Shown here piece after piece: positions 584 through 54,846 of a stretch of 64,000 nucleotides of DNA (its first letter is position 1; each line of letters opens with the position of its first letter). The notes beneath the pieces are model-generated. The model had not been told where the DNA came from. It made no database searches and saw nothing but the letters and a program-made list of their open reading frames with translations. Where the stretch lies: positions 14,619-78,618 of the forward strand of contig JBBRCW010000001.1 of the NCBI GenBank assembly GCA_038204535.1, written 5' to 3'. The DNA is from Chitinophagales bacterium (lineage in GTDB: Bacteria; Bacteroidota; Bacteroidia; Chitinophagales; Chitinophagaceae). A program made the position numbers and the translations under genes.

Positions 584-3500
584 ATGAGTGAAAGTAAGAA
601 ACCAGCCGTTCGTACCGGTAAAGATATTTTTAACCTCGTCCGTTCTAAACAAAACGAAGGACAGGTTAATGTGATTCCCGAACCGGCAGGGGAAGTTCAA
701 ATTGCGCTGATGACTATTTGGAAAGGTATTTTACCGGGCGCCGGGTTTACAACCAGCGACGATTTTTTTAAAGTGGGTGGCAACAGTATAAAAGCGGTTC
801 AACTGGCCAGCCAGGCGTCCAGGCATTTTAATATCTCCGTTGAACTTACCGACATCTTTCTAAATCCCACCATAACCGGACAGGAAATTTTTATTTCGGA
901 AAAAAATCACCAATCAACTATTGTTGCCGCGATTTCTGTTCAGTCGCGTAACGGCAACATCCCCTTATCGTACAATCAGCAGTGGTTATGGTTTGCGGAC
1001 AAATTTGAAGACAGCGTTGAGTACCATTTGGCCGAAGTTTTACAATTAAAAGGAAAGATAAACTACGAGGCGCTACACTTTGCTTTTAATAGATTAATCA
1101 CCCGGCACGAGGTATTGCGAACAATTTATACTGAATATGAAGGTGTGCCTTTTCAAAAGGTAATGGGCCCGGATGAATTTAAAATCGATCAGGAGAATGG
1201 TTTTTTATACCAGGCCGATGAAGAAAGATTGAATGAATTTATTGACGGGGAAATAGGTAAACCCTTCGATCTCTCCAAAGATTACCCCATACGGGCCTTG
1301 CTGATTGCCAAAGGTAATTTTGAACATTTGCTGGTCATTAATATGCACCACATTGCTTCGGATGGTTGGTCCATGTCGATAATTGTAAAAGAAGCCATTG
1401 AAAACTATAATGGTTTTATCAGTGGCAAATTGGATAATAAAGAACCGCTAAAAATCCAATATGCGGATTACGCTATTTGGCAGCGCGATTTCTTACAAAC
1501 CAAGTCCTTAAAGGATAAGCTGGAATTTTGGACAAAAAAATTGGAGGGAGTTACAGCCATAGATCTGCCGGCCGATTTTAGCAGGCCCGCTGTAAAAACC
1601 AAAAAAGGCGCGGTAAAACATTTTTTAATTGATAACGACCTTACAGATCAGGTCCGCAAGTTGGGTAACCAGGAAGGAAGCACTTTGTTTATGACATTGA
1701 TGGCTGCCTTTAATGTGTTGTTACATAAATACAGCGGTCAAAATGATCTATGCGTAGGTACCCCCATGGCCAATCGCTTACAAAACCAAACAGAAAATCT
1801 TGTTGGGTTTTTTACAAATACGATTGCTTTTCGAAGCCGGGTAGATCCCCGGCAATCTTTTAGCGCTTTTTTGACTTCAATTAAACAAACCGCACTGCAG
1901 GCTTACTCGCACCAGGAAGTGCCGTTTGAGAAAGTAGTTGAAGCAGTTGTTAAAGACCGTGACATTAGCAGAAGTCCTTTGTTTGACGTTGTATTTATTT
2001 TACAGAATACGCCGGATATTGAGGAGATAAAATTAATAGATGCAGAGGTCAAACATACAACCCATCATTCATACCAGGTAAAATACGATCTTACATTTAC
2101 GGTTACTGAAATGCCAGATGGACTGGATTTTTTAGTAGAGTATAGATCCGATCTGTATACTTCAGGCCGCATTGATAAGATGATGGATCATTTTATCCAC
2201 CTGCTGAAGTGTATCGTTAATGCTCCTCAGGAATTAATAAGCAAGTACAAAATTGTAACGCCTGCCGAAGAAGACCAGATACTTCATGAGTTCAATTCAC
2301 CTTCCGCGTTTACCCCGCAAAATGTAGTAGAGGTTTTTGAACAGCAGGTAGAAAATGCCCCGGGCAATATTGCCCTTACCTTTAACAACCTGAGCTATTC
2401 CTATGCAGAGTTGAATCAAAAGGCGAACCGGCTGGCCCGTTTTCTTCGTGCCAAAGGGGTAACCACAGAAACACTTGTGCCAATATGTTTGGAGCGAAGC
2501 ACTGAAATAATAGTAGCCATTTTAGGTATATTAAAAGCAGGCGCTGCTTATGTACCCATCGATCCCGCATACCCGGTTGATCGAATACAATACATGCTGG
2601 ACGATATAAAGGCAACCGTTGTATTGGTGAGCCTGGAAACGGTTGATGCTATTCCGCATTTACCCGCAATTGACGTGTTGGATATTTCCTCATCCCATAG
2701 TGAAATTGACGAATTTTCACCTGAAAATCCAAAAGTTGATATCAAGCCCGATAATTTGGCTTATATCATTTACACTTCAGGTTCAACAGGTAAGCCAAAG
2801 GGGGTTATGCTTGAGCACAAAGGGGTAGTTAACCTGGCGAAAAGCCAGGCCGATAATTTGCGACTGAAGCCTGGGTTAAAAACGCTTCAGTTTGCCTCGT
2901 ATGGTTTCGATGCTTCCTGTTACGAAATTTTTAATACCCTGTTAAGTGGCGGCCAATTAGTAATTCCTAAGAAAGAAGACCTTTTATCTGCAAGCCAGTT
3001 TGAATCTTTTATCAACCTGCATAAGGTAGATGTAGCGGTATTGCCGCCATCTTTTTTGCAGGTAATGAAAAACAATATAGGTACCATCAGCACAATTGTT
3101 TCCGCAGGCGAACCCATAAATCCCGACACTTGTAAATTTTTACAGTCGCGGGATATAAGAATGATAAATGCTTATGGTCCTACTGAAAATACGGTATGTA
3201 CCACTTTAACCGATAATCCGGTTTTGGAGAATGATATTATTACCATCGGCAAACCTATAGCCAATGTACAGGTACGAATTGTTGATAAAAATAATGATCT
3301 ATGTTCTATTGGTATTAATGGAGAGATGTGCATCGCGGGTGCACAGGTGGCAAGAGGATATTTTAACCGCCCCGATCTAAGCAAAGAAAAATTTGTAAAG
3401 GACTGGTTTAACAAAGATGAAGACCAGTTAATGTATCGCACCGGCGATATTGGCCGCTGGTTACCCGATGGCAGTATTGAGTTTATCGGCCGTATGGACG

Positions 3501-6500
3501 ACCAGGTTAAGATTAGGGGTTATAGAATTGAATTGGGCGAAATTGAAAATGTATTGCAGCAATGTGAGGGTGTTGAGTTGTGTACCGTAATAGCCGGCGA
3601 AGATAAGTTGGGTGACCTGCAGTTGGTTACCTATATAGAAAGCGATGGCGTTCTTACTCGTCAGCAGGTAACGGAATATTTGCAGACCAGTTTGCCTGAA
3701 TTCATGGTACCGGGCATCATTGTATTTCTGCCTAAAATGCCACTGACCATAAGTGGTAAAATCGACAAAAAATCTTTGCCGGATCCTTCGTCTGTCGAGC
3801 TAACGGATACCGAATTCCAGGCTCCGCAAAATCCGTTACAACAAAAGTTATCTGAAATCTGGATGGAGCTTTTGGAAATTGACCGGTTGGGAATAAATGA
3901 TAACTTTTTTGAACTGGGTGGACATTCAATGCTTGCAATGCGCATGGGGGCCGCGATTCGCAGACAGTTAAACGCGGATCTGCCGGTCAAAGCCATTTTT
4001 CAACATCCAACAATAGCCTCACTATCAAAAATAATTGAACAATTTAAAGAACTGGCTCCGCTGCCCGCGATCATTCCGGGCGACAGACCTGGTAGAATTC
4101 CACTATCGTTCAGTCAGGCAAGGTTATGGTTCATTCACCAGCTTCATGGTACCAATCCGTACCATATTCCCGCGGTATTAAGGTTAAATGGTAAGCTGAA
4201 TATTGATGCGCTTAACCAGGCGTTGCAAAGCGTAGTTGACAGACACCATGCATTGCGTACCATTGTTTTGGAGGACGAAGGGCGACCTTACCAGGTTATT
4301 CAGTCTTCGAAAAAGTGGAAGCTTATGCTGGTAAATGATCCGGATTTGTCTGATGAGGGAAAGCTAAAAGATTATATCCATCAACAAGTTACAAGGGTAT
4401 TTGATCTTTCAAAGGATTATATGCTTAGGGCCCGGCTTGTTGAGTTAAATAGTGAAGAACATATATTAATATTAACGGTACACCATATAGCTGCAGATGG
4501 ATGGTCAATGCCTGTTATAGTGAAAGAAATTGTTGCTCTGTATCAACATTTCGCTTATGGTGCAGTGGCTAGCCTGCCTGTACTTAAGGTTCAATATGCT
4601 GATTATGCTATATGGCAAAACCAGTTTTTGACCGGTGAAGTGCTTGAAAACAGATTGGCGTATTGGACAAAGGTTTTGGAAGATGTTCCTCCGCTCCAAC
4701 TTCCGCTCGACTATAAACGTCCTCCTGTTCAAAGCACCAATGGCGCGGTAACGGAAATGGTATTTCCTGTAGAGGTTTTGAACGGCTTAAAGTTATTGGG
4801 AAAGCAACAATACGCAACTTTGTTCATGACTTTGTTGTCGGCATTCAAAGTATTGCTATACCGCTACTCGGGCCAGCAGGACATTTGCGTTGGAACATCT
4901 GTTGCTAACCGGCAGCATGAGGAAACCGAGGGTGTAGTTGGATTTTTTGTAAACAATATTGCTTTGCGTAGCCAGGTAATTGGCAACGAATCATTTGTAG
5001 ATCTATTAAGCAATGTCAACACTTCAGTACTTGATGCTTTTCAATACCAGGATGTACCTTTTGAAAAGGTGGTTGACGCGGTTGTTCACGAAAGAGAAAT
5101 GAGCCGCAACCCGATTTTCCAGGTGTTGTTTGTTTTACAGAATACACCGGAAATTCCTGCAATAACATTACCGGGGCTGCAGATGTCGCCGCTGGATTTG
5201 GAACACACCACGGCGCAGCTTGATATGATATTCAACGTTAAAGAAAGTGCTGAAGGTTTGCATCTTTCCGTTGAATACTGTACCGATCTTTTTGCTGTTG
5301 AAACCATACAGCGGATGATTGCCAATTTTGGTGTCTTACTTCATTCAGTCACCAAAAATCCATCTTCAAAAATTGATCAGCTTGAGTTGTTCACTGAGGT
5401 TGAAACCAATAAACTATTAAGCGAATTCAATAATACCAATGCAGCTTTGGGCATTGAAAATACTGTTGTGGACTTGTTCAATGCGCAGGTGTCACGGGTG
5501 CCAAATAACATTGCTCTAATTTATGCTGACGAGTCAATCACATTCTCTGAATTAAATGAACGATCAAACCAATTGGCGGGTTACATCGTTAGCAAGGGCA
5601 TACTTGTTGGCGACATAGTTCCCGTTTGCATGCACCGTGGTTTCGATATGCTGGTAGCAATCTGGGCGATTTTAAAAGCCGGGGCAGCCTATGCGCCAAT
5701 TGACCCTGAATATCCTGCGGAACGCATACAATTTATAGCCGGCGACACCAAAGCAAAACTTATTATCTGTAATGAAGATTCAATTTTAAACCTGGATTTA
5801 TTGCAGGCGGTTGAGCAGGTTAATCTTGACCGGTTGCAAAACACGCTTAGCGGGTTTCCAACCCATTTTACAACCATGGCAAAGCCTGGTCAGCTTGCTT
5901 ATATCATTTATACTTCCGGTTCAACCGGTACGCCAAAAGGTGTGGCAATTCAACATTGCTCATTAAGCAACTACCTTTTAAATGGCAGCACAAACTACGT
6001 AAACAGGTCAAGCGGCGGAACGGGTTCGTTCCTTAGTTTGTCATTCACATTCGATGCTTCAATTACATCCTTGTTCATGCCGTCGATAGCAGGAAAGACG
6101 TTGGTGCTAAGTGCGAATACTGGCGTTAAAGTTTTTGATGATGAGAACTTCCTGGCACATGCTCCTTTCGATTTTTTGAAGATAACTCCGGCTCACCTTG
6201 AACTTTTAAAAGCTGTTGATGACAGTTACCTCACTAATTGGTTCACGCGAAAATTAGTTATTGGAGGTGAAGCTTTGTTGCCTGGTCATATCGATCATTT
6301 CATAAAAGAGGACATCAACGTTCAGGTTATAAACGAATACGGCCCAACGGAAGCGGCTGTGGGTTGCAGCACTTATAGTTTTTTTACAGTGACCGACAAG
6401 GATATGATCAAAAACAGCATTTCCATCGGCAAACCAATTGATAACGTAAAGCTATCTATCCTCGGCCCTTCAGGCACCTTGATGCCAATAGGCGCGGCAG

Positions 6501-9500
6501 GGGAAATATGTATCGCGGGCCAAGGTTTATCGTCAGGATATTTGAATCAGCCAGAACTGACAAGCGAAAAGTTTATAGCTGATCCGTTTGGCAAAAGCGC
6601 GAAATCAAAAATTTATAAGACCGGTGACTACGGCCGGTGGTTGCCCGATGGAAACATAGAATATATAGGAAGGATCGACGACCAGGTAAAAGTGAGAGGA
6701 TACCGCGTTGAACTATCCGAAATTGAAAATGTATTGCTGAAAAGTGGGCTGGTAAAACAAGCTGCTGTAATTGTAAAACAAGACAAAGAAAATAATAAGC
6801 GCCTGGCGGCCTATGTTGTTTGCGACGACACTGAAGAACTGGAGCAAGTAAAGGAGTATTCAATCAGGGTATTGCCCGAACACATGCTGCCGTCTTTTTG
6901 GATAGCAGTTAATAGCATGCCCCTAACCATTAGTGGTAAGATTGACAAAAAAGCCTTGCCCGAACCTGTTGATAACAGCCAGCCTGAAAAAGAAATTGAG
7001 GATGCACCTTTAAGTGAATTGAATAATAAACTTGCGGATATTTGGAAAGACCTGCTGGAACTTGACGAGATTGGTATAAACGATAATTTCTTTAACCTTG
7101 GCGGAGATTCTTTACTGGCTGTTCGGGTAGTAGCTGCAATACGTAAAAAGTTGCAGGCCGGGCTTGAGATCAACGCCATATTTGATCATCCCACCATTGC
7201 CGGTTTATCATCCGTTATAGAAGGAGACAAGAACGACTTTTTGTTGCCGCCGATTGTGCCGGCTGATCGCCCGAAGAATATTCCCTTGTCGTTTAGCCAG
7301 GAGCGCTTATGGGTCATTCATCAACTTGAAGGAAGTGTGCAATATCACCTCAATACGGTCTTAAGCATAGATGGTGAGCCTGAGTTGGCGGCGCTGAATG
7401 ATGCGCTGCATCAAATCGTTTCGAGGCACGAAATATTGAGAACCGTGTATCGCCAGCAAGATGGTAAACCTTACCAGGTAATAATGTCTGCCGGCGATAT
7501 CACCCTTAAGTCAATCGATCGATCTTTCAATAATATTAGTGATGCGGAATTAAATCAACTGATATTGGAAGAGACCAGCCAGCCTTTTGATCTGGCTACC
7601 GATTACATGATCAGGGCCAGCCTGGTAAAAATTAATATGGCCCGGTTTGTTTTGATCGTCACCCTGCATCACATTGCATCCGATGGCTGGTCCAATAATA
7701 TTTTTATTAAAGAAGTAACCGAATGTTATAATTCCTTCAAACAAAAAAAGAAAGCCAGCTTACCGGCGTTGCCCATTCAATATGCCGACTTTGCCATTTG
7801 GCAGCGGGCGAATTTGCAGGGCGATCTAATGGGGCAAAAGATCGCTTTCTGGAAAACATATTTACAAAACGTAGAACCGTTGCAGCTTCCGGCCGATTAC
7901 CAGCGGCCAGCCATGCAAAGCTTTAGAGGAGCGGTCATTCCGTTTTCCATCTCATCGCAAATAAAAGAAAAGCTTCAAAACATCAGTAAGCAACACGATG
8001 CTACATTGTTTATGACCCTTTTGTCGGCCTTTTATATTTTACTGAAAGAATACAGCGGGCAGCAAGATATAACCGTTGGCACACCCGTAGCCAATCGAAA
8101 ACAGCAGGAGGTTGAATCGTTAATCGGCTTTTTTGTAAACACGCTGGTTTTACGCACCAGGGTCGATAATGACTTGTCGTTTACCAGCTTGCTTCTGCAG
8201 GTAAAGGGGGATACACTCAAAGCATTTGAACACCAGGATCTTCCGTTTGAAAAAGTGGTGGATGCGGTGGTGAGTGAAAGAGATATGAGCAGGAACCCGC
8301 TTTTCCAGGTAATGTTTGTTTACCAGGAAGATGTGCGGCAGAATAAACATGTTTTAAATGATCTCAGTGTAGCGGTCGTTCAGCCTCAACAGGATACATC
8401 AAAGTTCGACCTCTCGTTTTTTATAAATGAATCAGACGGAGATTTAGAATGTTTTGTAGAGTATTGCACCGATTTATACAGCCACGATACGGTTGTAAGA
8501 ATGATCAGTCACTTTACAAACCTGCTTCAAAATATTGCTTTGAAGTCCGATCAGCGGATTGGATCGCTCTCCTTGCTTTCACCAAACGAGCAGCACCAGT
8601 TGCTGCACGAATTTCAGGGCAGGCACATGGCCTTGAAACAAGAAAGCATGGTTAGCTTATTTGAGCAGCAAGTTGCTTTATCGCTGGATAAACCGGCGAT
8701 TGTAAGCGGCGAAAGATCCATTACTTATAACGAGCTTAACGCGCTTAGTAATCGCATTGGCCGTTATCTGCAGAGCCTTGGTGTTAAGGCCGGAAGTTTT
8801 GTGCCCGTGAATATGGAGCGAAGTATAGAGATGGTAGTGGCGCTGCTGGGCGTGTTAAAAGCGGGTGCGGCTTACGTTCCCATAGATAAGACTTACCCGC
8901 TGCAAAGGGTGGCATACATGATAAAAGACTGCGGCGCCTCAATAGCGCTTTGCAACAGCTCCACCAGCAGCCAATTGATAGATATTTCAGGAATTACAGT
9001 GGTCGAAATTGATAACAACGCAGCGATTGGCCTTCAAAAGTCAGACAATACCAGGCAGGCCATCAGCCAGAACGATCTTGCTTATGTAATGTACACTTCG
9101 GGAAGCACAGGCCAACCAAAGGGAGTAATGATAGAACACAGAAGCGTATCGGACTTTTTGCAATGGTGTCACCAGGAGTTTGGCCAGTCGGATGTGGAAA
9201 CAGTATATGGCGGCACTTCCATTAATTTTGATCTGTCGGTGTTCGAAATTTTTTACAGCCTTACCAGCGGCAAAACCTTAAGGCTTTTGCAAAACGGCTT
9301 AGAGGCCGCCCGCTACCTGCCGGGAGATCAGAAAGTACTGCTCAATAGTGTGCCTTCCGTCATAGAAAGTTTATTAAAAGAAAACACCGATCTACGAAAT
9401 GTAACGGTGCTGAATATGGCTGGCGAGCCTGTATCTGCATTCATACAGCAGCATCTTGACCAGGAAAATATAGAAGTGAGAAACCTGTACGGCCCTACCG

Positions 9501-12500
9501 AAGACACTACCTACAGCACGGTTTACCGCATGCGCAAAGGACAGCCGCTCCTGATCGGCAAGCCTATTGCCAATTCGTATATACGTATTGTAAACCCGCA
9601 ATTGCAATTACTGCCAGTTGGAATAACAGGAGAAATTTGTATTGGAGGTGCAGGCCTGGCGCGGGGTTATTTAAACCGGCATGACCTGACGAATGAAAAA
9701 TTTATAAATGATCCTTTTAGCAGCGAAGCTGACGCGCTATTATACAAGACAGGCGATGTAGGGCGTTGGTTACCCGACGGCAATATAGAATATTTAGGCA
9801 GAATAGACGACCAGGTAAAAATTCGGGGCTACAGGATAGAACTGGGCGAGATTGAAAATGTTTTACAGCAAAACGAAACCATAAGCCAGGCAGCAGCCGT
9901 GGCTATAACAGACAATAATGGAAGTAAAAGATTAGCCGCCTACGTGGTGCCCGGGCCTGGATTCAATAAAGAAAAACTGGAATTGTGGCTGGCTCAAAGA
10001 TTGCCTGACTATATGGTGCCGCATTTGTGGATGCAACTGGAGCGCCTTCCACTAAACCAAAATGGTAAGATCGACAGAAAGGCTTTGCCCGCGATAGAAC
10101 CGGCGGAAAGCTCACCAAAGCGTTACACTGCACCCACCACGCAGACGGAAATTCAGCTTGCCGCCATTTGGGGCGAACTTTTGGGCAAAGAACAGGTGGG
10201 GGTCGATGATAACTTCTTCGGGTTAGGGGGCGATAGCATTTTAACCATTCAGGCGGTAAGCCGGGCCAACCGGCTGGCATACCATTTACATCCGCGGGAT
10301 ATATTTAAGCACCAAACCATCAGGCGTTTGAGTAAAGCCCTGGCTGATAATCATGCAAAGGCAATCACCGGCGAACAGGGTCAGTTGCAGGGTATAGCAG
10401 GGTTGTTGCCCATTCAACATAATTTTCTGGAAAGCGATCAGCCTGAACCTTCGCATTATAATCAAAGCGTGTTGCTGAACATAAACAAAAATGTTAGCAA
10501 ACACATGTTGCGGCAGGTTGTCAGGTTGCTGGTACAACAGCACGATGCGCTCAGGTTTCGCTATTTTAAAAATGACGGAATCTGGCAACAGGAATATGGC
10601 CAGGCACCAGGCGAATTATTTATAGAAGATTTGAGGAGTTCAGGCGATGTACCTGCAGCCCTTGATCAAATAGCCAACCAATACCAGCAGAGCCTTAATA
10701 TTGAAAAGGGCGGCCTGGTAAGAATGGTATGGATACAAATGCCAGGGGAAGTGAATAGTGAAGAACGAATAGTGAATAATGAAGAACGAATAATGAATAG
10801 TGAAGAACGAATAGTGAATAATGAAGAACGAATAATGAATAGTGAAGAACGAATAGTGAATAGTGAAGAACGAATAGTGAATAATGAAGAACGAGCATTA
10901 GTTAATGAAGAATCTTCATCCCTCATTCCTCAACCCAATTCCTTCAGCAATCGCCAACTGACAACTGACAACTCACCACTCACCACTCACCACTCACCAC
11001 TCACCACTCACAACTCACTCACCGCTCACCAGAAAAATCGTCTCCTTATCATCATCCACCACCTGGCAGTAGACGGTGTATCGTGGAGGCTGTTACTGGA
11101 GGATTTGGAAGTGTTGCTGACAGCCGCGGCCAGCGGACAGCAAGCCATTCTTCCCACTAAAACCAGCAGTTACCGCCAATGGTACCAGGCATTGGAACAA
11201 TATGGGCAAAGCAGCAGTCTGCTGAAACAAAAAGAATACTGGCATCAGGCGGCAAGCAGGCAAAGCTTACAGATAACAGATACGAAATACGAAGGCCCCA
11301 TATTGGTAAAAGACCTGGGCAATTACAAAACAAGCTTAGATGCCGGCGAAACCAGTCTTTTGCTGCAGCAGGTACCCAAAGTGTACCATACAGGCATCAA
11401 CGACCTTTTGCTTGCCGCCCTGGCCCGCGCCTTTCAACAGCTTTTGAAAACAAATACATTATTGATCGGTCTCGAGGGGCAGGGCAGGGAGGATATCTCC
11501 GCAGTCATAGATACAAGTCATACGGTTGGCTGGTTCACCAGTTTATACCCGGTGCTGCTCAATATCGAAAATTGTATAAACCACGATCAACTGATAAAGG
11601 CAGTAAAAGAACAGTTGAGAGCGGTACCTGATAAGGGGCTTAGCTATGGGGTTCTAAAATACATCAACCATGATAAAGCGCTTAAAGGGAAAGAGCAGTA
11701 CGATCTAATATTTAATTACCTGGGGCAATTGGATAACGTGACGGGTAACAGCAAATGGTTCAGTGTAGCACGTGAAAATTCAGGCGAAAACAGAAGTGGC
11801 GAAACCGAAGTGTTTGAAAAGATATCTTTAGCGGCACAGGTATTAGAAGGGCAACTCGAACTTCATTGGAGCTATAGTACCAAACATTTTAATGCGCAAA
11901 CCATACAGAATTTAGCCGGGGTTTTTGTAGGCCACCTGGCAGCCATCATCAGCCATTGTCAAAAGCAAGAGGAGATTGCCGGTGCAGTTTATACCCCGTC
12001 TGATTACGGCATAGAAAAAGAGGTAAGTTATCCTGAACTGGATGCCTTTTTACAAACCGGTGTCAATGGGCAGCCCATCAGCCGGCAGATAGAAAGCATT
12101 TACCGGTTAAGCGGATTGCAGCAAGGCATGCTGTTCCATAGCCTTTATCATCCGGGCGGCGCTTATATTGAGCAGTTTACCTGCAGCCTTCCGGCGGAGG
12201 TTAACCTGGAGGCCTTTGAAAAAAGCTGGCAGGCGGTGATAGAACGCCATACCATTTTGCGTTCTTCATTTTGGTTTGATGCCTTAAGCATACCGGTGCA
12301 GGCCGTCATGAAACAGGCCGTACTGCAAATCACCCAAATTGACCTTCGGCAAAAATCCATAGAGGAACAGGCGGCTGCCATATTTACCTTTGAAAGCGAA
12401 GACAGAACGCGGGGCTTCGATTTTAAGCAGGCGCCGCTTATGCGCCTGGTCTTGCTGCATACCACAAACGGCTACAGGTTGGTATGGACCTACCATCACC

Positions 12501-18388: not shown

Positions 18389-18515
18389 TGAGGTGCGCCT
18401 TTTTGTAAAGTTGACATTGATTGAAATTTGGAAAGGAAATAATGTAATGTGCGTTTGACAGGGATTTTAAATGATTTTCGGCAAAAATTATATTTTATAG
18501 AAAAACGAAACAATT

Positions 18516-25118: not shown

Positions 25119-25125
25119 AGTTAAA

Positions 25126-36453: not shown

Positions 36454-36467
36454 AAGAAGAAAATTGT

Positions 36468-44636: not shown

Positions 44637-44662
44637 CCGGTAATGTTCAGGCAACTAAATCT

Positions 44663-47600
44663 ATGAAACAAACGTTTAACAAAATAGTTGATATTATATA
44701 TACCGCCCGAAAAGATGGCGTTGAATTTGTGTTGAATGGCGACAAATTGCAACTTAGGTATGCTGAAAAGAAAACGATCGATAAAGAGTTACTCCAGGAG
44801 ATAAAGGACAACAAACTTGAAATAATTGATTTTTTAAGAAACGATAGTTGGAAAACACGTGCGGTTAATGGCGCGCCTAAATTGATAGGAGCCTTTGATA
44901 GAAATGATGTTTCTCAAATTCCACTCTCGTTCGCCCAGGAGAGATTGTGGTTTATAGACAAATTACAGGGAAGTATCCAATACCATACAGTAGTCGCATT
45001 AAGATTAAAAGGCAATTTAAGCCGGCAGGCACTGGAGCATGCCCTGGAGCGTTTGATTGAACGACACCAGGTTTTACGCACGGTCTATTATGAGTTAGAG
45101 GGGGTTGTATATCAAAAAATTAAAGAAGCAACCGAATGGAAACTTTCGTGGGATGATGGTCTGTTCGGCAATGCGGATAACCATGTGCTTGAAAGAAAAA
45201 TAAACGAGCTGATTAGCCAGCCATTTCATCTTGATAGAGATTATATGTTTAGGGCCACGCTGCTGGCGCTTGATGACAATGAATTTTTATTGGTGGCGGT
45301 AGTTCATCACATTGCCTGCGATGCATGGTCTGCCCCGATTATTGTAAAAGAGGTAGCAGACTTTTACAGCAGGTTTACAAAAGGTGAAACTGCGCCTTTT
45401 GCCTCTTTGCGCCTGCAATTCGCCGATTATGCGGTTTGGGAAAGAGCCCATCATACAAAAGACTATCTGCAGCCAAAAATTGACTATTGGAAACAGAAGC
45501 TTGATGGTTTTTCGCCTCTTCAGCTCCCGTACGATTTTGATGCTCCGGTAGTAAGATCAGCAAAAGGCGACAGTATAAGCTATAAGATTGATGCTGAGGT
45601 GGTTGCAAAATTAAATGACATATGCAGGCAGAATGACTGTAGCCTTTATATGTTGCTGCTGGCCGCATACAATATTTTGCTTTACAGGTATAGTAACCAA
45701 ACCGATATTACGGTAGGCGCATCTGTGGCCAATAGAAACCAGGCTGAAATAGAAGAGCTGGTAGGTTTTTTTGTAAATACGGTTGTCTTCCGCAATCAAA
45801 TTGAAAGCAACAGAAGTTTCATTGATTTATTAAACCAGGTCAAAGCCACTACCATTGGGGCATACGAAAATCAGGACGTTCCGTTTGAAAAGGTGGTAGA
45901 AAATGTTTTAAAGGAAAGAGAAAGCAGCAAAGCATCATTGTTTCAGGTGATGCTTGTTTTTCTGAATACCCCGGGAGGAGACAGAAAAGCATTGGGGGAA
46001 CTTGAAATTACCGGGGAACCTGTTCGGTCATCTGTTTCAAAATTCGACTTTACCTTTTTTATTGCCGAAACGCTTCCCGGGCTCTCAATAACAGTAGAAT
46101 ACAGCACAGAATTATTTAAAGAAGCCACCATTTTTCAGTTGCTGCAACATTTTGATAAACTGCTTCAGGAAATTACCATTGATCCAAATAGGTCTGTCTC
46201 ATCGCTGCCCATGCTTACAGATAAACAGCGGCATAAACTGGTAAACGACTATGGCTTCAGCTCCGTGGCCTTACCAGCAGAAAACAACATTGTTTCGCTT
46301 TTTGAAAATGAGGTTAGAAAAAAGCCGGGTATTGCTGCGGTTAAATTTGAGGGAGAAAAAATGACCTACGGGCAATTGAACAAAAGGGTCAATCAGGTAG
46401 CGCATTATTTAAGATCTAAAGGTATTGGGCCTGATAAATATGTTCCAATTATAGCGGAACCTGGTTTGGATCTCGTGGTAGGCATTCTTGGTATTTTGAA
46501 ATCGGGCGGCGCTTATGTACCCATAGATACCGCATTACCTGCCGAACGAATTGGTTTTATAACAAAGGATACCGGCGCTTCAATTGTTCTGGTAACCCCA
46601 AAGCAAAGGCACAAAATTGAAGTGTCTGATTTTTCGTCGTTGATCGTATTACAAACCGATGAGGCTGCATTTGAAACCCAGCCTGGTACCGATCCCGAAC
46701 CAGTTATTAATAATGACCATCTGGCCTATGTTATTTATACCTCCGGATCTACCGGCACGCCAAAAGGTGTAATGATTACGCACCGGTGCTTAGTGGATTA
46801 TTTTTACGGAATTGCTGATAAGCTGCCGGTGAAGCTTTGCAATTCGTTCGCGCTTTTATCATCGGCAGCTACCGATTTGGGTAACACGGTTATTTATAGC
46901 GCATTCTTAACGGGCGGATGCCTTCATCTCTTTTCTGCTGAAACTTTAAGTGACGCCTATGCGTTGCACAGCTATTTTGATGAGCATAGTATAGATTGCA
47001 TAAAGATTGTTCCATCGCATTGGAACGCCCTGGAGATAGAGGAGAAAAAATTACTGCCAAACAATTTATTGATTTTTGGCGGCGAAGTTTTATACACCGA
47101 TTCAGTAAAGAATATTTTATCTGCCAATCCAAATCTCACTGTTGTCAACCATTATGGTCCAACTGAAACAACTATTGGAAAGTTGTTGCATGTTTTAGAT
47201 AGAAATGCTGTTTACGGAAATACAATTCCGCTGGGCAGGCCGTTTGGAAATACAAGCGTATATGTGTTGTCGAACGACATGAAACTATCGCCTGTTGGCG
47301 TGCCAGGCAAACTATTTATTGCAGGCCAAGGCTTAGCAAAAGGTTACCTGAACAATGAAGCACTTACAAATGAAAAATTTGTTTCCAATCCAATTGACGG
47401 CAATAAATATGATATTGTTTACAATACCGGCGATATTGTAAAATATTTACCCGACGGTAATATCTTATTTATCAACAGAGCCGATGACCAGGTAAAAATA
47501 AGGGGATACAGGGTAGAACCTGGAGAGGTTGAGGCCGCATTTCAATCAATAGATTCCATTAGGCAGGCTGTGGCTATAATTAAAGAGGATTCAAGCCGAA

Positions 47601-50600
47601 ACAAGAACCTGGTTGTTTTTGCAGTACCTGATAAGGCTTTTGACCATGAAGAAGTTTTAAATATTATAAAAGCGAAACTTCCTGATTACATGATTCCGGC
47701 TAAGATTGTTGAGCTGGAAAGTTTTCCATTAATGCCAAATGGAAAAGTAGATCGGCGAGCGCTTCAGTTTATTGATATTAAGTCAACTGGAAAATCAAAT
47801 AACGTAAATCCACGCAATAATACCGAAGCAAAACTTGTTGAAATTTGGATGGAGGTGTTAGAGTTGGATAACGTAGGAATCAACGATGATTTTTTTGAGC
47901 AAGGCGGACATTCGTTGCTGGCAATCAGGGTGGTTTCAGCTATTCGTAAAGCCTTTAAGGTAGAGTTGCCTATTGGCGATATTTTTGACTTTCCAACTAT
48001 CGCACTTCTTTCTGCACAGGTTGAAGCACGGAATGAAAATGAATTGTTGACAAGTATTAAGGCTATCACTCCCAGGCCGGATTATGTACCCCTTTCATTT
48101 AGCCAGGAGCGGCTTTGGTTTATTCATCAGCTTGGCGGAAGTGCTCAATATCATATTCCTGCGGTTTTTAAATTGGCAGGTTCACTGGATGTAAATGTTT
48201 TAAAAAATGCTTTTCACCAGGTAATAGAGCGGCACGAAGCACTTAGAACAGTTTTTATTACAAAGAACGATTTGCCCGGTCAATACCTTAAGAAAAGTGA
48301 AGATTGGCAATTATCAATTATAGCAAAGGAAATTGCCATTAAAAAGCAGGAGGAGATTATAGCTTCTATGGTAAATGAGCCTTTCGATCTTGAAAAAGAT
48401 TTTATGATAAGGGCTTGTGTATTAGAGCTGGATAAACCGGAATTTTTGCTGGTAATAAATCTACATCATATTGCTTCAGATGCGTGGTCATCTTCACTGT
48501 TCGTAAAGGAAATTACTGAAATATACAACGCGCAATTCGAAGGCCGGGCTCCGGTTCTCCCCATTTTGCCCGTTCAATATGCCGACTATTCCATCTGGCA
48601 AAGAGAACAGGCAAAAAGCGAAAGCTGGAAGAAGAAAATAGAATTCTGGAAAAATTACCTGCAGCAAATTGACGTTTTACAATTGCCTGCCGATTTTGTA
48701 CGGCCAATGGTGCAAAGCCTGAATGGGGCAATGTTGCCGGTTGCTGTAAATAGCGAATTGGCTCATCAAGTTCGAAAATTAAACATGCGGCCTGGTACAA
48801 CCATGTACATGACTTTGCTTGGGGCCTTCAATTTGCTTTTATATAAGTATACCAACCAGACTGATATTTGTGTTGGTACGCCAGTGGCCGGTAGACAAAT
48901 GCAGGAAATTGAAAGTCTGATAGGTTTTTTTATAAACACCGTTGTGGTGCGTACCCGTATCAACGAACAGGAAACATTTTCTGATCTTTTATATAATGTC
49001 AGGGAAAATACGCTTTCCATGACTCCCTACCACGACATTCCATTCGAAAAGGTAGTTGAAGCAACTGTCAGCGAAAGAGACATAAGCAGAAATCCAATTT
49101 TCCAGGTGGCCTTCAGTTATCAAAGTATCGGCGAAGGCGACACCGGGCACCTAAAAAATATTACACTTAAGCCTTTTAATTCAAAAGGAACGGAACATAA
49201 AACTTCCAAATTCGATATAACCTTTAATATCACTGAAAGTCAAAATAATTTATTTCTTTCTGTTGAGTACTGCACCGACCTGTTTAAGGAAGAGACCATA
49301 CAAAGAATGATAGCTAATTACATCCAGCTGTTATCGGTGGTTTGTAAGAATTCTGATATCCCTTTAAATCAAATATCGGTTATCACCCCTGCAGAACAGG
49401 ATCAACTAAACCGTTTGAATGATACTTACCGTGATATTCCTTCTGATTTAGGTTTGGTGCAATTGTTTAAACAGCGCATAGCTGCTGCACCTGAAACTAT
49501 TGCAATCGTTGATAATCATACAAAAGTTACCTATAGGCAATTAGATGAAAGGTCAAACCAGGTTGCTAATCAATTATCGACTGGCGGAATAAAAGAAGGG
49601 GCATCTATAGCGTTAATTGCCAACCGTGGTATCGACATGATTGTCGCCATTTGGGGTATTATTAAACTCGGTTGTACTTATGTTCCGTTGAATATTGACT
49701 TTCCAACAGAAAGGTTACAATTTATTGTTGAGAACGCTAATGCAGCCGCTGTTGTATGTACAGATGCCAGTCTGCTTCAAACTAAAACCATAACAGGGTG
49801 CAAGACTTTTTGTGTTGCCGGGGCCGAAACATTTGAAAGAAGTTTTGAACCGAAAGCTTATCTGCCCCAAACGCCGGTTTACATAATGTTCACAAGCGGC
49901 ACTACCGGTAAGCCAAAGGGAATAAAGGTAAGCCAACAAAATATAGTGAACCTGGCATGTCAGCAAAATGAAATCAGGGTGCGCCAAAATGATGTATTGC
50001 TGCAATGGTCTGATTACGGATTCGATGGCAGCATCTACGAAATTTTTGGCGCTCATTTAAATGGTGCCTCTTTGTGTCTATTACAGGAAGGAATGGCTGC
50101 CAATGTTGAGGCCATGGCAAAAGTAATCATTGACAACAAGGTTTCGGTATGCTTTATAACCACCGCTATTTTCAATGCAATTGCCGATACTGACCCTTTT
50201 ATATTAAAGGGCCTGCGAAAGGTGTTGTTTGGGGGAGAAGCTGTTTCTTCTTTTCACGTTCGAAAAGTGATTGGGATCATAGGTGCCGACAAAATTGTTC
50301 ACGTTTACGGGCCTACCGAAACAACGGTATATGCTACCAGCTGCCCTTTAAACCAGGTGAATGAGAATGAAATAATTCCTATTGGAAGACCGCTGAATAA
50401 TGTGAAAGCTTTTGTTTTAGATCAGAATAAAAATCCGGTTCCAATAGGTGCACCTGGCGAATTGTACATAGGTGGCAAGGGTGTATCCATGGGTTATTCT
50501 AATAATGAAGCCTTAACCGGTGAGAAGTTCTTAAGTTTATTTATCGTAAATAGTATAGAAAGACTTTATAAAACGGGAGACATTGTAAGATGGAACAGCA

Positions 50601-53506
50601 ATGGTTTACTTGAATTTATGGGTCGAATAGATGACCAGGTTAAAATTCGCGGTTATCGGATTGAGCCATCCGAGATCGGGAATGTGCTGCAGGATAATGT
50701 GATGGTACAATCGGCATTTGTAAATGTTAGAAATTACCGAGGTTTTAAATCGCTGGTAGCCTATGTTATTCCGGGAGCTAATTTTGAAAGACCAAAACTC
50801 ATCAATTGGTTAAAGTCGAAAGTGCCAGATTTTATGGTGCCTGCCTATTGGGTTGAGATGGAGGGTTTTCCCTTAACAGCCAATGGAAAGATTGACAAAA
50901 ATGCGCTGCCCGAGCCGGCTATGGATGAACGGGATGCACGTAAACTGGAGGCCCCTTCTACCGATCTTGAAAGAAAATTGGCGGATATGTGGCAGTCGCT
51001 TTTAGGAATAAAAAATATTGGTGTCAATGATAATTTCTTTGAGATCGGTGCCGATTCTATCCTTACCATACAGTTTGCAAACCTTGCACGCAGAAATAAT
51101 ATCGAAATTCAGCCGAGGGATATTTTTGTTTACCAAAGCATTTCTCAATTAGCGGTATTTATAGCAGAAAATGCAGGAGTAAAAATTAATGGCGAACAAG
51201 AGCTTTTAACCGGAAATGCCGGATTGTTACCTGTTCAGCAATGGTTTTTTGAAAATACAGGCCCGGCTGTGTCTCATTTTAACCAGGCACTCATATTGGG
51301 TATCGAAAAGCAAATAACTCCCGACCAGCTAAACAGGGCCTGGAGTTTATTGATCAAACAACACGATGCCTTAAGATTTGTTTATTCTAAAAGTAATGGT
51401 AACTGGAGCCAGGAATACAGTAATCAATTACCTGCGGTGATAGTAGAGAATATTGAAACAGGTGACGAGGCTGCTTTAAGAACGAAATTGCTGGAAAGAT
51501 CAAATTATTTCCAGCAAAGTCTGGACATTTTTAAAGGCCAGATAATAAAAGTTGTATTATTTCAAACTCCTGGCTTCGAAAGCCGAAATCGTTTGTTAGC
51601 GGTAGTTCATCACCTGGCAATCGATGCAGTTTCGTGGAGAATATTGATTGAAAATCTTGAATATATTTTATCCGCAATAGTAAAAGGGGATGAACCGGAC
51701 CTGGGGAGTAAAGGTTCGTCGTACAGGCAATGGCACCAGGCGTTAGTGAAATATGGGCAGCAGCCAGCCGTAAAAAGAGAAGTTGAGTACTGGAAAGAAG
51801 AACAAAAAAAGTATCGGCCAATACAAAAAGGAAAAACAACTATTGGAAGGGTTCGAATTGGAGATATCAGGTCTCTATCAATGAATTTAAGCAGCGAACA
51901 GACCAGCATTTTGGTGAATGAAGTTCCGAAAGTTTATCAAACTGAAATAAATGATGTTTTATTAACCGGGCTTGCATTAGCTATTAAACAGTGGGGAGGA
52001 ATTAGCGATGTAACGATCGGAATGGAGGGATATGGCAGAAATGAAATAGATAAGGAAATTGACTTGAGCAGAACGGTAGGCTGGTTTACCACTATCTATC
52101 CGGTTGTTATAGAGACCGGCGATCATAGTCTTCCGGCGTCGCTTTTGCCGGTTGTTAAAAACGTACTTAGAAATTTGCCGGCCAAAGGCATTGGTTTTGG
52201 AGTTTTAAAATATATAAATAAAGATGAAAGGCTTGCTGATGTGCCAAAGTGGAATGTTGTTTTTAACTACCTCGGCCAACTGGATAGTGTGACCAGATCC
52301 GGGCAATGGATATCAGCAACGACTGATTCTGCTGGTAAATCGATTGGCGACGAGCATTTTGTTCAGGAAGATTTATCGCTAAACGGATCAATTCAAAACG
52401 GGCAGCTGTTTTTTAATATAGGGTACAATAGTAAAAACTTTTCTCAAAGCGACACCGAAGATTTTGTCAGTAAATTCCAGGCTATTCTTGAAGAACTGAT
52501 AAGCGCTGTTGCTTTAGAAAAAATTAAGTTTGAAGCCGACAAAACAACCTCATCGTTTGCTGCGGCTAATCCGTTGGAAGAAATTATAGAAGAGGATTTG
52601 ATTAAGAGTGCAAAAAACAAATATCTTATACCACTAAAGGCGGCTGGCAAAAAGAGCCCTTTGTATATAGTTGCTGGCGGGGGAGGCACAGCTACAAAAT
52701 TTATGCGTTTTGCAAGAATGTTAGACGAAGAGCAGCCTGTGTATGCATTGCAGCCACCGATTGATTATGATGATCTGAAAGCTTTTCCGGATACGATTGA
52801 AAAGATCGCCGAGGTATTTGTAGCGGAAATTCTTTCGGTTGACCCAGATGGTCCATTTGCATTGTCTGGCCATTGCACCGGGGGAAAAATCGCTTTTGAA
52901 ATGGCTAAGCAACTAAAAGCGGCCGGCAAAGAAGTATCTATGCTCGCTATGTTTGATACCTTGATCGGACGAAAATTTGTTGATGAGAAGCCGTCCTTAA
53001 AAAACTACTATAAAATTCCGGCAACTTTTAAATCGATTATAGCAAGTGTAAAATTGAAAATTGACTTTGAAACCTATTTATTGCGAAAACATACTAAAAA
53101 AGCCATTCTCTATAAATTAAATTCGCTCCAAAACTTTTTCAAACATCATTTTGGCAAGCGATCAAATAACGATTTGAAGACTTATGATGAATATGAGATA
53201 TTCTTTAAAACCTCCGAACACTACACTAAGGCCAGCAGAAAATACCAAATGGCGCCCTATGATGATGCGATTATCCTTTTTTATGCAAAAGAACGTTACT
53301 ATTTTGTAGATGTTAATAATAAGATCAATTTTAAAAAGATAGATTTGGACATTGGATCGCAGCATGCCTGGGAGGATTATGCAACAAAAGTGATGTTATA
53401 TGAGATAAAGGGAGAACATTCCAATATTTTTGAAAGCATACATGGCGATGAGTTTGCAATGATCTTACAAGAGCAGTTAAATAAATCATCACTGTTAAAC
53501 AAATGA
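44663..53506 (+). CDS. NRPS subunit 5, termination (2947 aa): docking domain-[C-A13(Asp)-T]-[C-A14(Ile-like)-T-E]-TE
   Basis: TubC_N-like N-terminus. A13 code DLTKIGHIGK (Asp). A14 code DGYFLGVVYK (one residue from the Ile code DGFFLGVVYK). Carrier GADS, E domain HHLAIDAVSW. C-terminal alpha/beta-hydrolase TE with GHCTG, AMFDT and GEHSNIF. Confidence 0.96.
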   Translation: MKQTFNKIVDIIYTARKDGVEFVLNGDKLQLRYAEKKTIDKELLQEIKDNKLEIIDFLRNDSWKTRAVNGAPKLIGAFDRNDVSQIPLSFAQERLWFIDKLQGSIQYHTVVALRLKGNLSRQALEHALERLIERHQVLRTVYYELEGVVYQKIKEATEWKLSWDDGLFGNADNHVLERKINELISQPFHLDRDYMFRATLLALDDNEFLLVAVVHHIACDAWSAPIIVKEVADFYSRFTKGETAPFASLRLQFADYAVWERAHHTKDYLQPKIDYWKQKLDGFSPLQLPYDFDAPVVRSAKGDSISYKIDAEVVAKLNDICRQNDCSLYMLLLAAYNILLYRYSNQTDITVGASVANRNQAEIEELVGFFVNTVVFRNQIESNRSFIDLLNQVKATTIGAYENQDVPFEKVVENVLKERESSKASLFQVMLVFLNTPGGDRKALGELEITGEPVRSSVSKFDFTFFIAETLPGLSITVEYSTELFKEATIFQLLQHFDKLLQEITIDPNRSVSSLPMLTDKQRHKLVNDYGFSSVALPAENNIVSLFENEVRKKPGIAAVKFEGEKMTYGQLNKRVNQVAHYLRSKGIGPDKYVPIIAEPGLDLVVGILGILKSGGAYVPIDTALPAERIGFITKDTGASIVLVTPKQRHKIEVSDFSSLIVLQTDEAAFETQPGTDPEPVINNDHLAYVIYTSGSTGTPKGVMITHRCLVDYFYGIADKLPVKLCNSFALLSSAATDLGNTVIYSAFLTGGCLHLFSAETLSDAYALHSYFDEHSIDCIKIVPSHWNALEIEEKKLLPNNLLIFGGEVLYTDSVKNILSANPNLTVVNHYGPTETTIGKLLHVLDRNAVYGNTIPLGRPFGNTSVYVLSNDMKLSPVGVPGKLFIAGQGLAKGYLNNEALTNEKFVSNPIDGNKYDIVYNTGDIVKYLPDGNILFINRADDQVKIRGYRVEPGEVEAAFQSIDSIRQAVAIIKEDSSRNKNLVVFAVPDKAFDHEEVLNIIKAKLPDYMIPAKIVELESFPLMPNGKVDRRALQFIDIKSTGKSNNVNPRNNTEAKLVEIWMEVLELDNVGINDDFFEQGGHSLLAIRVVSAIRKAFKVELPIGDIFDFPTIALLSAQVEARNENELLTSIKAITPRPDYVPLSFSQERLWFIHQLGGSAQYHIPAVFKLAGSLDVNVLKNAFHQVIERHEALRTVFITKNDLPGQYLKKSEDWQLSIIAKEIAIKKQEEIIASMVNEPFDLEKDFMIRACVLELDKPEFLLVINLHHIASDAWSSSLFVKEITEIYNAQFEGRAPVLPILPVQYADYSIWQREQAKSESWKKKIEFWKNYLQQIDVLQLPADFVRPMVQSLNGAMLPVAVNSELAHQVRKLNMRPGTTMYMTLLGAFNLLLYKYTNQTDICVGTPVAGRQMQEIESLIGFFINTVVVRTRINEQETFSDLLYNVRENTLSMTPYHDIPFEKVVEATVSERDISRNPIFQVAFSYQSIGEGDTGHLKNITLKPFNSKGTEHKTSKFDITFNITESQNNLFLSVEYCTDLFKEETIQRMIANYIQLLSVVCKNSDIPLNQISVITPAEQDQLNRLNDTYRDIPSDLGLVQLFKQRIAAAPETIAIVDNHTKVTYRQLDERSNQVANQLSTGGIKEGASIALIANRGIDMIVAIWGIIKLGCTYVPLNIDFPTERLQFIVENANAAAVVCTDASLLQTKTITGCKTFCVAGAETFERSFEPKAYLPQTPVYIMFTSGTTGKPKGIKVSQQNIVNLACQQNEIRVRQNDVLLQWSDYGFDGSIYEIFGAHLNGASLCLLQEGMAANVEAMAKVIIDNKVSVCFITTAIFNAIADTDPFILKGLRKVLFGGEAVSSFHVRKVIGIIGADKIVHVYGPTETTVYATSCPLNQVNENEIIPIGRPLNNVKAFVLDQNKNPVPIGAPGELYIGGKGVSMGYSNNEALTGEKFLSLFIVNSIERLYKTGDIVRWNSNGLLEFMGRIDDQVKIRGYRIEPSEIGNVLQDNVMVQSAFVNVRNYRGFKSLVAYVIPGANFERPKLINWLKSKVPDFMVPAYWVEMEGFPLTANGKIDKNALPEPAMDERDARKLEAPSTDLERKLADMWQSLLGIKNIGVNDNFFEIGADSILTIQFANLARRNNIEIQPRDIFVYQSISQLAVFIAENAGVKINGEQELLTGNAGLLPVQQWFFENTGPAVSHFNQALILGIEKQITPDQLNRAWSLLIKQHDALRFVYSKSNGNWSQEYSNQLPAVIVENIETGDEAALRTKLLERSNYFQQSLDIFKGQIIKVVLFQTPGFESRNRLLAVVHHLAIDAVSWRILIENLEYILSAIVKGDEPDLGSKGSSYRQWHQALVKYGQQPAVKREVEYWKEEQKKYRPIQKGKTTIGRVRIGDIRSLSMNLSSEQTSILVNEVPKVYQTEINDVLLTGLALAIKQWGGISDVTIGMEGYGRNEIDKEIDLSRTVGWFTTIYPVVIETGDHSLPASLLPVVKNVLRNLPAKGIGFGVLKYINKDERLADVPKWNVVFNYLGQLDSVTRSGQWISATTDSAGKSIGDEHFVQEDLSLNGSIQNGQLFFNIGYNSKNFSQSDTEDFVSKFQAILEELISAVALEKIKFEADKTTSSFAAANPLEEIIEEDLIKSAKNKYLIPLKAAGKKSPLYIVAGGGGTATKFMRFARMLDEEQPVYALQPPIDYDDLKAFPDTIEKIAEVFVAEILSVDPDGPFALSGHCTGGKIAFEMAKQLKAAGKEVSMLAMFDTLIGRKFVDEKPSLKNYYKIPATFKSIIASVKLKIDFETYLLRKHTKKAILYKLNSLQNFFKHHFGKRSNNDLKTYDEYEIFFKTSEHYTKASRKYQMAPYDDAIILFYAKERYYFVDVNNKINFKKIDLDIGSQHAWEDYATKVMLYEIKGEHSNIFESIHGDEFAMILQEQLNKSSLLNK

Positions 53507-54457: not shown

Positions 54458-54846
54458 GCCATAGCAAATAAACCTAATGCGAATGGTTGTACCCGAAATC
54501 TTGGTTTTTAAGTAAATATTTCCTATTTTTAAATCCTGCTCCAATATCAATCACTTGTTAAATGCTACAAGTGTTATGCTGCCATTAATCAACAACAAGG
54601 ATTTTCAGTGGATTTTTATTTTGCTGGCCAATTGAATACATTTAAAAAAATTATAATTAGATTTATCTTCTAATTTATACTTTGGGTATTATGCAACCTA
54701 AAGTGTTTTTTAGCCTTCTTTTAAAGGCTGATAATTCAGTTTTATTTTATTATAAATTTTTATAAGTAAATATTGATTTATAATTTAAAAGCAGGTTTTA
54801 TATCGTCCATTCCTGATCAACCTTTGCAAATTGAAAAGAACAGAAG

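Follow-up and report, generated by a model that had tools for sequence, protein, structure and literature searches.

The present analysis concerns a stretch of 64,000 nucleotides (in the following called the window) from contig JBBRCW010000001.1 of the Chitinophagales assembly GCA_038204535.1, in which five open reading frames (ORFs A to E) spanning positions 584-53506 of the + strand encode a nonribosomal peptide synthetase (NRPS) with 14 modules. It is a real, intact, and undescribed orphan cluster, the start of which is cut off by the window. We regard it as probable that this is a glycerate-primed assembly line, in which an FkbH protein and an additional carrier domain, T0, load a glyceryl unit, the 14 modules extend it, and a cysteine thioesterase (TE) releases the chain, an upstream protein with the domain order C-A-T-C*-FkbH being suggested by the relatives (C, condensation; A, adenylation; T, carrier; E, epimerization; C*, the C domain directly ahead of FkbH). 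The order found is FkbH (C-terminal half) / T0-[C-A-T]x2-[C-A-T-E]-[C-A-T]x2 / [C-A-T]x2 / [C-A-T]x2-[C-A-T-E] / [C-A-T-E]-[C-A-T] / [C-A-T]-[C-A-T-E]-TE, where slashes separate proteins. All parts of the line named below lie on the + strand.

A cut FkbH gene and the carrier domain T0

At nucleotides 2-580 a frame without stops reaches back to the first base of the window and encodes the last 192 amino acids of a gene that the left edge interrupts; they match the C-terminal half of an FkbH (glyceryl transferase/phosphatase) domain. This fragment covers positions 150-320 of the 323 positions of TIGR01686 (E-value 7.8e-37) and contains the motif FLLSCRVLGR, which is invariant in our FkbH alignment (A1). 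The cysteine of SCRVLGR, encoded here by nucleotides 362-364, has a catalytic role in FkbH proteins. No solved structure matched the fragment. As part of an FkbH gene is found at this position, the cluster must run off the left edge of the window. The source contig measures 84,546 nucleotides, and a Logan contig extends 511 nucleotides past this edge. The FkbH gene ends 3 nucleotides ahead of ORF A, where carrier-region matches were obtained at amino acids 31-137. The extra N-terminal carrier (PP-binding) domain T0 is located at 674-883 and carries the sequence FFKVGGNSI with serine 68 encoded by nucleotides 785-787. The ten best matches of T0 in all fetched loci, scoring 59 to 113 bits, were N-terminal T domains, eight of them from proteins encoded directly after FkbH proteins; ordinary internal T domains scored 40 to 44 bits against it. 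With T0 a carrier domain is present directly downstream of FkbH, the pairing of the two is established as far as sequence comparison can establish it, and T0 is presumed to be the acceptor of the glyceryl unit.

FkbH is known to replace an A domain and to charge a carrier with a glyceryl unit that comes from 1,3-bisphosphoglycerate and has lost its phosphate, as in the C-FkbH-PCP module for cystomanamide (PMC8949500; PCP, peptidyl carrier protein) and in the vioprolide line (PMC9581180), and in these cases a C domain forms an ester to the glycerate (PMC8949500, PMC9581180). In the line described here FkbH would take 1,3-bisphosphoglycerate, strip off the phosphate, and move the glyceryl unit via its conserved cysteine to the phosphopantetheine of T0. 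The first C domain of ORF A, C1, which is of the elongation type, would couple the glyceryl thioester to phenylalanine, and thirteen more cycles would lead to glyceryl-Phe-Asn-D-Ala-(Lys-like)-Leu-Asp-(beta-amino acid)-Gly-X-D-Asn-D-Ala-Leu-Asp-D-Ile, with X standing for the residue of module 9. The cysteine thioesterase would then free the chain by cyclization or hydrolysis. Judging from the relatives only, the cut upstream protein may have about 2,050 amino acids with the order starter-C - A - T - C* - FkbH, a hydroxyl group of the glycerate would form an ester with an N-acylated amino acid as in cystomanamide and vioprolide, and genes for a phosphopantetheinyl transferase, a type II thioesterase, and a CmlA-like beta-hydroxylase may be located further upstream. 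The reactions themselves, the module upstream, and the way in which the chain is released are inferred.

What may precede T0 was deduced from the 11 nearest relatives of the FkbH fragment. Five of them are complete C-A-T-C-FkbH proteins of about 2,050 to 2,470 amino acids (L002, L008, L017, L084, and L085), in two further relatives cut at the contig start a C domain fused ahead of FkbH is still visible (L039 and L087), an eighth, L080, has a truncated C domain before FkbH, and the FkbH sequences of L081 and L004 are cut by contig ends. The C domains preceding FkbH in the five complete proteins form a clade of their own, with 58% identity within the clade, 28% identity to elongation-type (LCL) domains, and the motif HHIISDGWSKG; they are a candidate for an ester-forming C subtype. 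At the N-terminus these proteins have a C domain with the motif HHLxTDGYG which is only about 15% identical to every other group, a divergence that would fit a starter C domain. After T0 the relatives have a C domain of the ordinary elongation type, like C1 of the window. From the elongation type of C1 together with the C-A-T-C-FkbH protein of the relatives it follows that the line probably comprises 16 units on six or more subunits, and that the unit on T0, which precedes Phe, is probably glycerate. Upstream of the line, genes for a phosphopantetheinyl transferase, a type II thioesterase, and a CmlA-like diiron beta-hydroxylase are found in L085 and L005 (in the latter directly before the T0 protein), thioesterase and CmlA-like genes in L008, and a CmlA-like gene in L002.

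The fused C domains also bear on a simpler beginning, in which glycerate is only the cap at the N-terminus of a 14-residue peptide: a short stand-alone FkbH protein would prime T0, resulting in 15 units on six proteins with no further amino acid module upstream. Such a line would agree with the upstream part being outside our view, with the 545 amino acids FkbH ORF of L086, which apparently has no C domain, and with reports of glyceric acid in cyanobacterial peptides. As a C domain is fused upstream of FkbH in seven of the 11 nearest relatives, five of them being complete C-A-T-C-FkbH proteins, with a truncated eighth case in L080, we consider the cap unlikely.

Several observations weigh against a glycerate-primed line with an upstream module. 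The FkbH fragment reached 127 bits and stayed below the whole-domain cut-off of 146.65, which is to be expected as it is half a domain only, yet it is no pass. The N-terminal half of FkbH with the HAD motif DxDxT and everything upstream of it are outside the window. Among the relatives, the FkbH protein of L086 seems to lack a fused C domain, and in L005 the T0 protein is encoded directly after a hydroxylase gene, with FkbH being encoded elsewhere. The residues at modules 4, 7, and 9 are without a verified reference assignment. Finally, the sequence is known only from DNA runs of a sediment metagenome; no more than three runs, all from one study, contain near-identical DNA, with a depth of about 5-7x.

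The nearest FkbH relative, L080 (63% identity), was set aside as a stand-in for the unseen upstream region. In its truncated C domain, HH is only about 100 amino acids away from the HAD motif compared to about 530 elsewhere, an in-frame TAA occurs within its FkbH at 4680-4800, and its NRPS shares no more than 37-42% identity with ORF A. L080 is likely a pseudogene or an assembly problem. It shares exactly its first 141 nucleotides, and nothing else, with L082 from the same European Nucleotide Archive (ENA) sample, a length equal to the assembler k of 141; the two are branches leaving one repeat node in the A8-motif region.

The fourteen modules and the release domain

ORF A (584-18388, 5934 amino acids), ORF B (18516-25118, 2200 amino acids, with a TTG start), ORF C (25126-36453, 3775 amino acids), ORF D (36468-44636, 2722 amino acids), and ORF E (44663-53506, 2947 amino acids) contain 5, 2, 3, 2, and 2 modules, respectively, have no internal stops, and are separated by gaps of 127, 7, 14, and 26 nucleotides. 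The ORFs were cut into 18 pieces for a Pfam scan, which yielded Condensation, AMP-binding, AMP-binding_C, and PP-binding domains 14 times each with E-values from 1e-65 to 1e-113, an additional Condensation-family domain after T3, T10, T11, and T14, and no methyltransferase domain in ORFs A to E. The DNA of the A8 motif is likewise found 14 times, with a spacing of about 3.1-3.5 kb, or of 4.8-5.0 kb where an E domain intervenes. Long exact repeats pointing to misassembly were not found, the module copies being 60-86% identical in DNA. The carrier serines, the HHxxxD motifs, and lysine 517 of the A domains are all intact; repeated C-A-T units with intact core motifs (HHxxxD, A3/A10 with Lys517, and the GGxS serine) are followed by a terminal release domain, as in a modular type I NRPS. 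An N-terminal docking region was found in ORF B (18516-18695), a TubC_N-like docking domain in ORF C (25138-25293), and a TubC_N docking domain in ORF E (44684-44839), and ORF A ends with the docking tail ...NEFDEIVI. The gap between ORFs A and B (18389-18515) is AT-rich, and the TTG is the only canonical start of ORF B. The orthologous junctions are long too, with 159 nucleotides in L082 and 114 in L083; an internal promoter or regulatory site in this gap is possible and a candidate only.

The original prediction, made from the letters of the DNA, had proposed 14 C-A-T modules in collinear order without stops or frameshifts over about 53 kb, and both statements are borne out by the Pfam scan and the five uninterrupted ORFs. 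Its description as a 14-module, five-subunit synthetase holds for the content of the window and fails for the line as a whole, given that an FkbH gene is cut at the left edge and T0 opens ORF A. Four features found here had not been mentioned in it, namely the terminal cysteine thioesterase, T0, the cut FkbH gene, and the heptanucleotide-repeat insertions in three E domains.

Substrate codes were read from an alignment of the A domains to a GrsA fragment, which reproduced the canonical DAWTIAAICK at the right numbering. In ORF A, module 1 (C-A-T, 953-4015, with the LCL-like C1) has the code DAYVVAAVCK for phenylalanine, module 2 (C-A-T, 4094-7195) has DATKVGEVGK for asparagine, and module 3 (C-A-T-E, 7277-11971, with GGDSI in T3 and E3 at 10331-11971) has DLFNNALTYK for alanine, predicted to be converted to D-Ala. 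Module 4 (12092-15160), where a DCL-like C domain precedes A and T, shows DAEHIGEVTK, tentatively for a lysine-like or basic residue, and module 5 (C-A-T, 15242-18325) DAWFLGNVVK for leucine. The two C-A-T modules of ORF B are module 6 (18747-21824; DLTKIGHIGK, aspartate) and module 7 (21900-25055; VDSVTSIADK, probably a beta-amino acid resembling beta-Ala). ORF C encodes module 8 (C-A-T, 25372-28434; DILQLGVIWK, glycine), module 9 (C-A-T, 28510-31599; DPLYLAQVVK, weakly proline-like), and module 10 (C-A-T-E, 31678-36333, E10 at 34783-36333), the code of which, DATKVGEVGK, predicts asparagine and, after epimerization, D-Asn. Both modules of ORF D start with a DCL-like C domain: module 11 (C-A-T-E, 36702-41348, E11 at 39765-41348; DLFNNALTYK) is expected to incorporate alanine as D-Ala, and module 12 (C-A-T, 41472-44570; DAWFLGNVVK) leucine. 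In ORF E, module 13 (C-A-T, 44915-48004; DLTKIGHIGK) is assigned to aspartate and module 14 (C-A-T-E, 48083-52507; DGYFLGVVYK) to isoleucine, converted to D-Ile; T14 has GADSI, and E14 (51221-52507) has no repeat insertion.

DATKVGEVGK of modules 2 and 10 we take to be the canonical asparagine code, and DLFNNALTYK of modules 3 and 11 and DGYFLGVVYK of module 14 are presumably codes for alanine and isoleucine. In module 7, aspartate 235 is replaced by valine and an aspartate is found at position 236, and the orthologues keep this arrangement with VDSVMSIADK and VDCVTSIADK. Valine 235 with aspartate 236 is, as we assume, the pattern of beta-alanine domains, for which no literature source was found. 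For the code of module 9, which reads DPLYIAQVVK and DVLYIAQVVK in orthologues, a literature look-up gave no match. Other codes can be compared to Table S7 of the paper on chitinopeptins, which ties codes to residues of Chitinophaga peptides verified by nuclear magnetic resonance (PMC9248904). The code of modules 5 and 12 is identical to the verified leucine code DAWFLGNVVK, that of modules 6 and 13 to the chitinopeptin code DLTKIGHIGK for Asp or beta-OH-Asp, and module 1 agrees in nine of ten positions with the verified beta-OH-Phe code DAYTVAAVCK (PMC9248904); its phenylalanine may be beta-hydroxylated later. The code of module 4 matches the verified D-Lys code DAEDVGEVVK in seven of ten positions, and exactly this code, DAEHIGEVTK, is listed as 'X (Lys?)' for C. 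niastensis (PMC9248904).

The codes read here reproduce the substrate list proposed earlier. The peptide string given along with it agrees with these codes in its residues and has 15 names for 14 modules; the additional X at its beginning corresponds to the unit on T0 and not to a module of ORF A. With position 4 taken as Lys, position 7 as beta-Ala, and position 9 as Pro, the glyceryl-14-mer has a calculated mass of 1545.77 Da in the linear and 1527.76 Da in the cyclic form.

The terminal thioesterase (52658-53503, PF00975) has a cysteine at the nucleophile position, Cys2738 in the motif SGHCTGG, encoded by nucleotides 52874-52876. This cysteine aligns with the catalytic serine of the NRPS thioesterase structure 7CRN, and candidates for the aspartate and the histidine are located at the usual positions. 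The motif SGHCxGG is common to all eight closest thioesterase homologues, which were taken from fetched Chitinophagaceae and Mucilaginibacter loci and form the ends of other synthetases; the cysteine therefore marks a subfamily. An assignment to the beta-lactam forming thioesterases of the SulM type was rejected by the published criteria (PMC11298585), as the window has His-Cys-Thr instead of Gln-Cys-Asn and its last code is isoleucine-like and not one for diaminopropionate (Dap).

Condensation and epimerization domains and their repeat insertions

An all-against-all comparison of the 18 domains of the C family was used to define subtypes, which were named by clustering and motif, not by reference hidden Markov models. 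C1-3, C5-10, C13, and C14 form one group with a mutual identity of 38-47% and the motif HHIAxDGWS. C4, C11, and C12 share the motif HHLLxDGWS, have a mutual identity of 41-49%, and reach about 20% with the remaining eleven C domains, which fits D-donor (DCL) C domains located behind E domains. The four E domains cluster apart from the C domains and have the motif HHLAVDGVSW; E3, E10, and E11 are 61-64% identical to each other, and E14 is 36-39% identical to those. The best solved-structure matches of E3 include the E domains of TycA and GrsA. T domains ahead of E domains have GGDSI or GADSI in place of GGHSL, and the former two are a known signature of carriers preceding E domains. E domains in modules 3, 10, 11, and 14 (also seen in the Pfam scan) and DCL-type C domains after the first three of them had been part of the original prediction, which is correct in this respect because of the clustering, the structure matches of E3, and the carrier motifs. 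The alanine modules 3 (7277-11971) and 11 (36702-41348) are paralogous as A-T-E units, A3 and A11 being 70% and E3 and E11 64% identical. A recent duplication of modules 2-6 into 10-13 was ruled out, as domains sharing a code reach only 46-47% identity, the alanine A-T-E unit excepted.

E3, E10, and E11 carry 61 to 92 additional low-complexity amino acids in the hairpin just before the HHxxxDG strand. They are encoded in frame by repeats of 21 and 7 nucleotides in tandem at 10750-11018 in E3, by an insertion of the same kind at 35208-35391 in E10, and at 40178-40400 in E11, where CAACTCA occurs 14 times. The encoded repeat protein consists of (N[NS]EERI[VM])n followed by (QLTTDNS/PLTTHHS)n, the latter being (PLTTHHS)n in E3, and the DNA contains repeats such as ACTCACC x 7. 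The QQSLDI anchor and HH are 124 amino acids apart in E3, 93 in E10, 105 in E11, and 32 in E14, and 27-33 in nearly all other E domains checked. In three sediment metagenome runs, words of the heptanucleotide repeat from 35251-35385 have depths of 77-526x as compared to about 4-9x for the flanks, and contigs with unrelated flanks also carry such words; the motif is therefore abundant elsewhere in the community or genome. An RNA hairpin formed by the purine- and pyrimidine-rich blocks of E3 was considered and rejected, with a z-score of +1.46 and no long inverted repeats.

That these insertions disable epimerization by E3, E10, and E11, or that slippage of the 7-nucleotide units switches the synthetase off in part of the population, is very unlikely in our opinion. 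The insertions are indeed missing from E14 and from the other anchor-bearing Bacteroidota E domains examined, and units of 7 nucleotides keep the frame only in threes, so that slippage could shift it. However, all three insertions are in frame with the remainder of each E domain intact, DCL-type C domains still follow the repeat-bearing E domains, and E3 of the intact orthologue P0363 has a shorter homologous insertion of about 30 amino acids without tandem repeats. No variants of repeat length were seen in Logan contigs, which hide rare variants.

The C domain clustering also decides on a self-contained synthetase with 14 modules on five subunits, as originally predicted, in which C1 would take a starter X, for instance a fatty acyl-CoA. 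All 14 modules and the thioesterase are indeed inside the window, and a starter C domain opens many lipopeptide lines of Bacteroidota. C1, however, groups with the elongation C domains, with 41% identity to the LCL group of the window versus 15% to the starter-like N-terminal C domains of the relatives, and ORF A opens with a carrier domain and not with a C domain. Together with the FkbH gene ending 3 nucleotides upstream and with T0 belonging to the FkbH-associated carriers this leaves the self-contained synthetase largely refuted and highly improbable. A role of C1 as a lipid starter C domain was accordingly rejected, as it clusters with the elongation type and T0 starts ORF A; in a glycerate-primed line a starter C domain may reside on the unseen upstream protein.

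Host, relatives, and comparison with known systems

The host is an uncultured Chitinophagaceae bacterium from a sediment metagenome. The cofactor-independent phosphoglycerate mutase (iPGM) encoded in the flank is 77-78% identical to proteins from Danxiaibacter and Niastella, both Chitinophagaceae, and 87% to metagenome proteins, in accordance with the earlier assignment to a Bacteroidota genome. On the right, the cluster ends with the stop codon of ORF E. The genes further downstream (53687-63558) do not belong to it and encode proteins of the families Wza-like polysaccharide export, WcaJ-type undecaprenyl-phosphate glucose phosphotransferase, PAP2 phosphatase, FAD oxidoreductase, NadC, iPGM, and haem-binding domain protein, together with an ORF of 192 amino acids at 58977-59555 without family match. 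Their G+C content is 35-41% versus 40-48% in the NRPS genes.

With one genome per GTDB species searched, the best match to the T0-C1 region was 46% identical, and collinear relatives, at 50-57% identity, were found only on metagenome contigs. The absence of a described match, left unverified in the original prediction, agrees with this result, as nothing above 46% was found among the genomes of named GTDB species. One of the relatives, P0363, is an orthologue that spans the whole of ORF A at 50% identity, starts with T0, and has the same T0-...-E-... order; in L082 and L083 the end of A and the B and C genes are collinear with the window at 50-57% identity. The codes for aspartate, the beta-amino acid, glycine, and the residue of module 9 are conserved between the window and these three relatives. 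Differences are found in position 1, where P0363 has asparagine instead of phenylalanine, and slight ones in positions 4 and 5.

Orphan clusters of such a kind are common, and this is one among very many, from an uncultured source organism. Peptides of Bacteroidota are, on the other hand, little explored, with antifungal and antibacterial leads including the chitinopeptins, the pedopeptins, and the isopedopeptins, and if glycerate incorporation is true the product class would be new to the phylum. A glyceryl-14-mer of about 1,546 Da in the linear form plus an upstream acyl-amino acid is predicted, with Asn-Ala-x-Leu-Asp and Asn-Ala-Leu-Asp as sequence tags. To clone the whole line, one would have to start about 10 kb farther upstream than would be concluded from the window.

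The chitinopeptin NRPSs of Chitinophaga eiseniae and C. flava (PMC9248904) resemble the window in being 14- to 15-module lines with in-line E domains in Chitinophagaceae, with identical aspartate and leucine codes and a near-identical phenylalanine code; CmlA-like hydroxylases are a further chitinopeptin-like trait, found in the relatives of the window. Unlike the chitinopeptin lines, the window has a different order of residues, no N-methyltransferase, no codes for Thr, Ser, or Dap, an FkbH/T0 start in place of a starter C domain, a module resembling those for beta-amino acids, and a T-E-TE ending. Membership in this described cluster family might be suggested by the number of 14 modules, the host being one of the Chitinophagaceae, the agreement of the Asp and Leu codes, and the code DAEHIGEVTK shared with the C. 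niastensis variant. It is practically excluded and already refuted by composition and architecture, as the residues of chitinopeptin A include N-Me-Val, Thr, Ser, Dap, Lys, and beta-OH-Ile, no methyltransferase domain was found in ORFs A to E, a starter C domain or a polyketide synthase module opens the chitinopeptin lines, and the C. eiseniae locus matches at only 40%. That the peptide is not of the chitinopeptin type had been suspected before, and residue order, composition, and the lack of a methyltransferase domain support this.

Within the searchable papers, FkbH in a Bacteroidota NRPS is mentioned in one passing genome-mining note (PMC11298585), and text searches, done without a MIBiG comparison, found no papers linking FkbH with Bacteroidetes or Chitinophaga. 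The predicted NRPS described there, from Flavobacterium sp. Leaf82 (PMC11298585), is similar to that of the window in coming from Bacteroidota, in having an FkbH-like domain in place of an A domain, and in its thioesterase, which was retrieved with the cysteine thioesterase of SulM as a query. It comprises seven modules, the last one for Dap, and was assessed with the criteria for beta-lactam thioesterases including Gln-Cys-Asn (PMC11298585), whereas the window has His-Cys-Thr in its thioesterase and D-Ile as the last residue.

A parallel in logic is found in the myxobacterial (Cystobacter) cystomanamide and vioprolide systems, where, as proposed for the window, FkbH takes the place of an A domain, glycerate is bound to a carrier, and a C domain continues the chain. 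In contrast to these, FkbH and its carrier are located on two proteins in the window, the host belongs to Chitinophagaceae, and 14 residues follow; the C domain upstream of FkbH is deduced from the relatives. It is tentatively suggested that the cluster stands for an undescribed product class of Chitinophagaceae, in which glycerate would serve as an ester-linked bridge between the N-acyl amino acid of a starter module and a long peptide. The bridge would be made by a split C*-FkbH / T0 module with its own C subtype, and the product in the present case would comprise about 16 units, among them a beta-amino acid and four D-residues, and would be released by a cysteine thioesterase.

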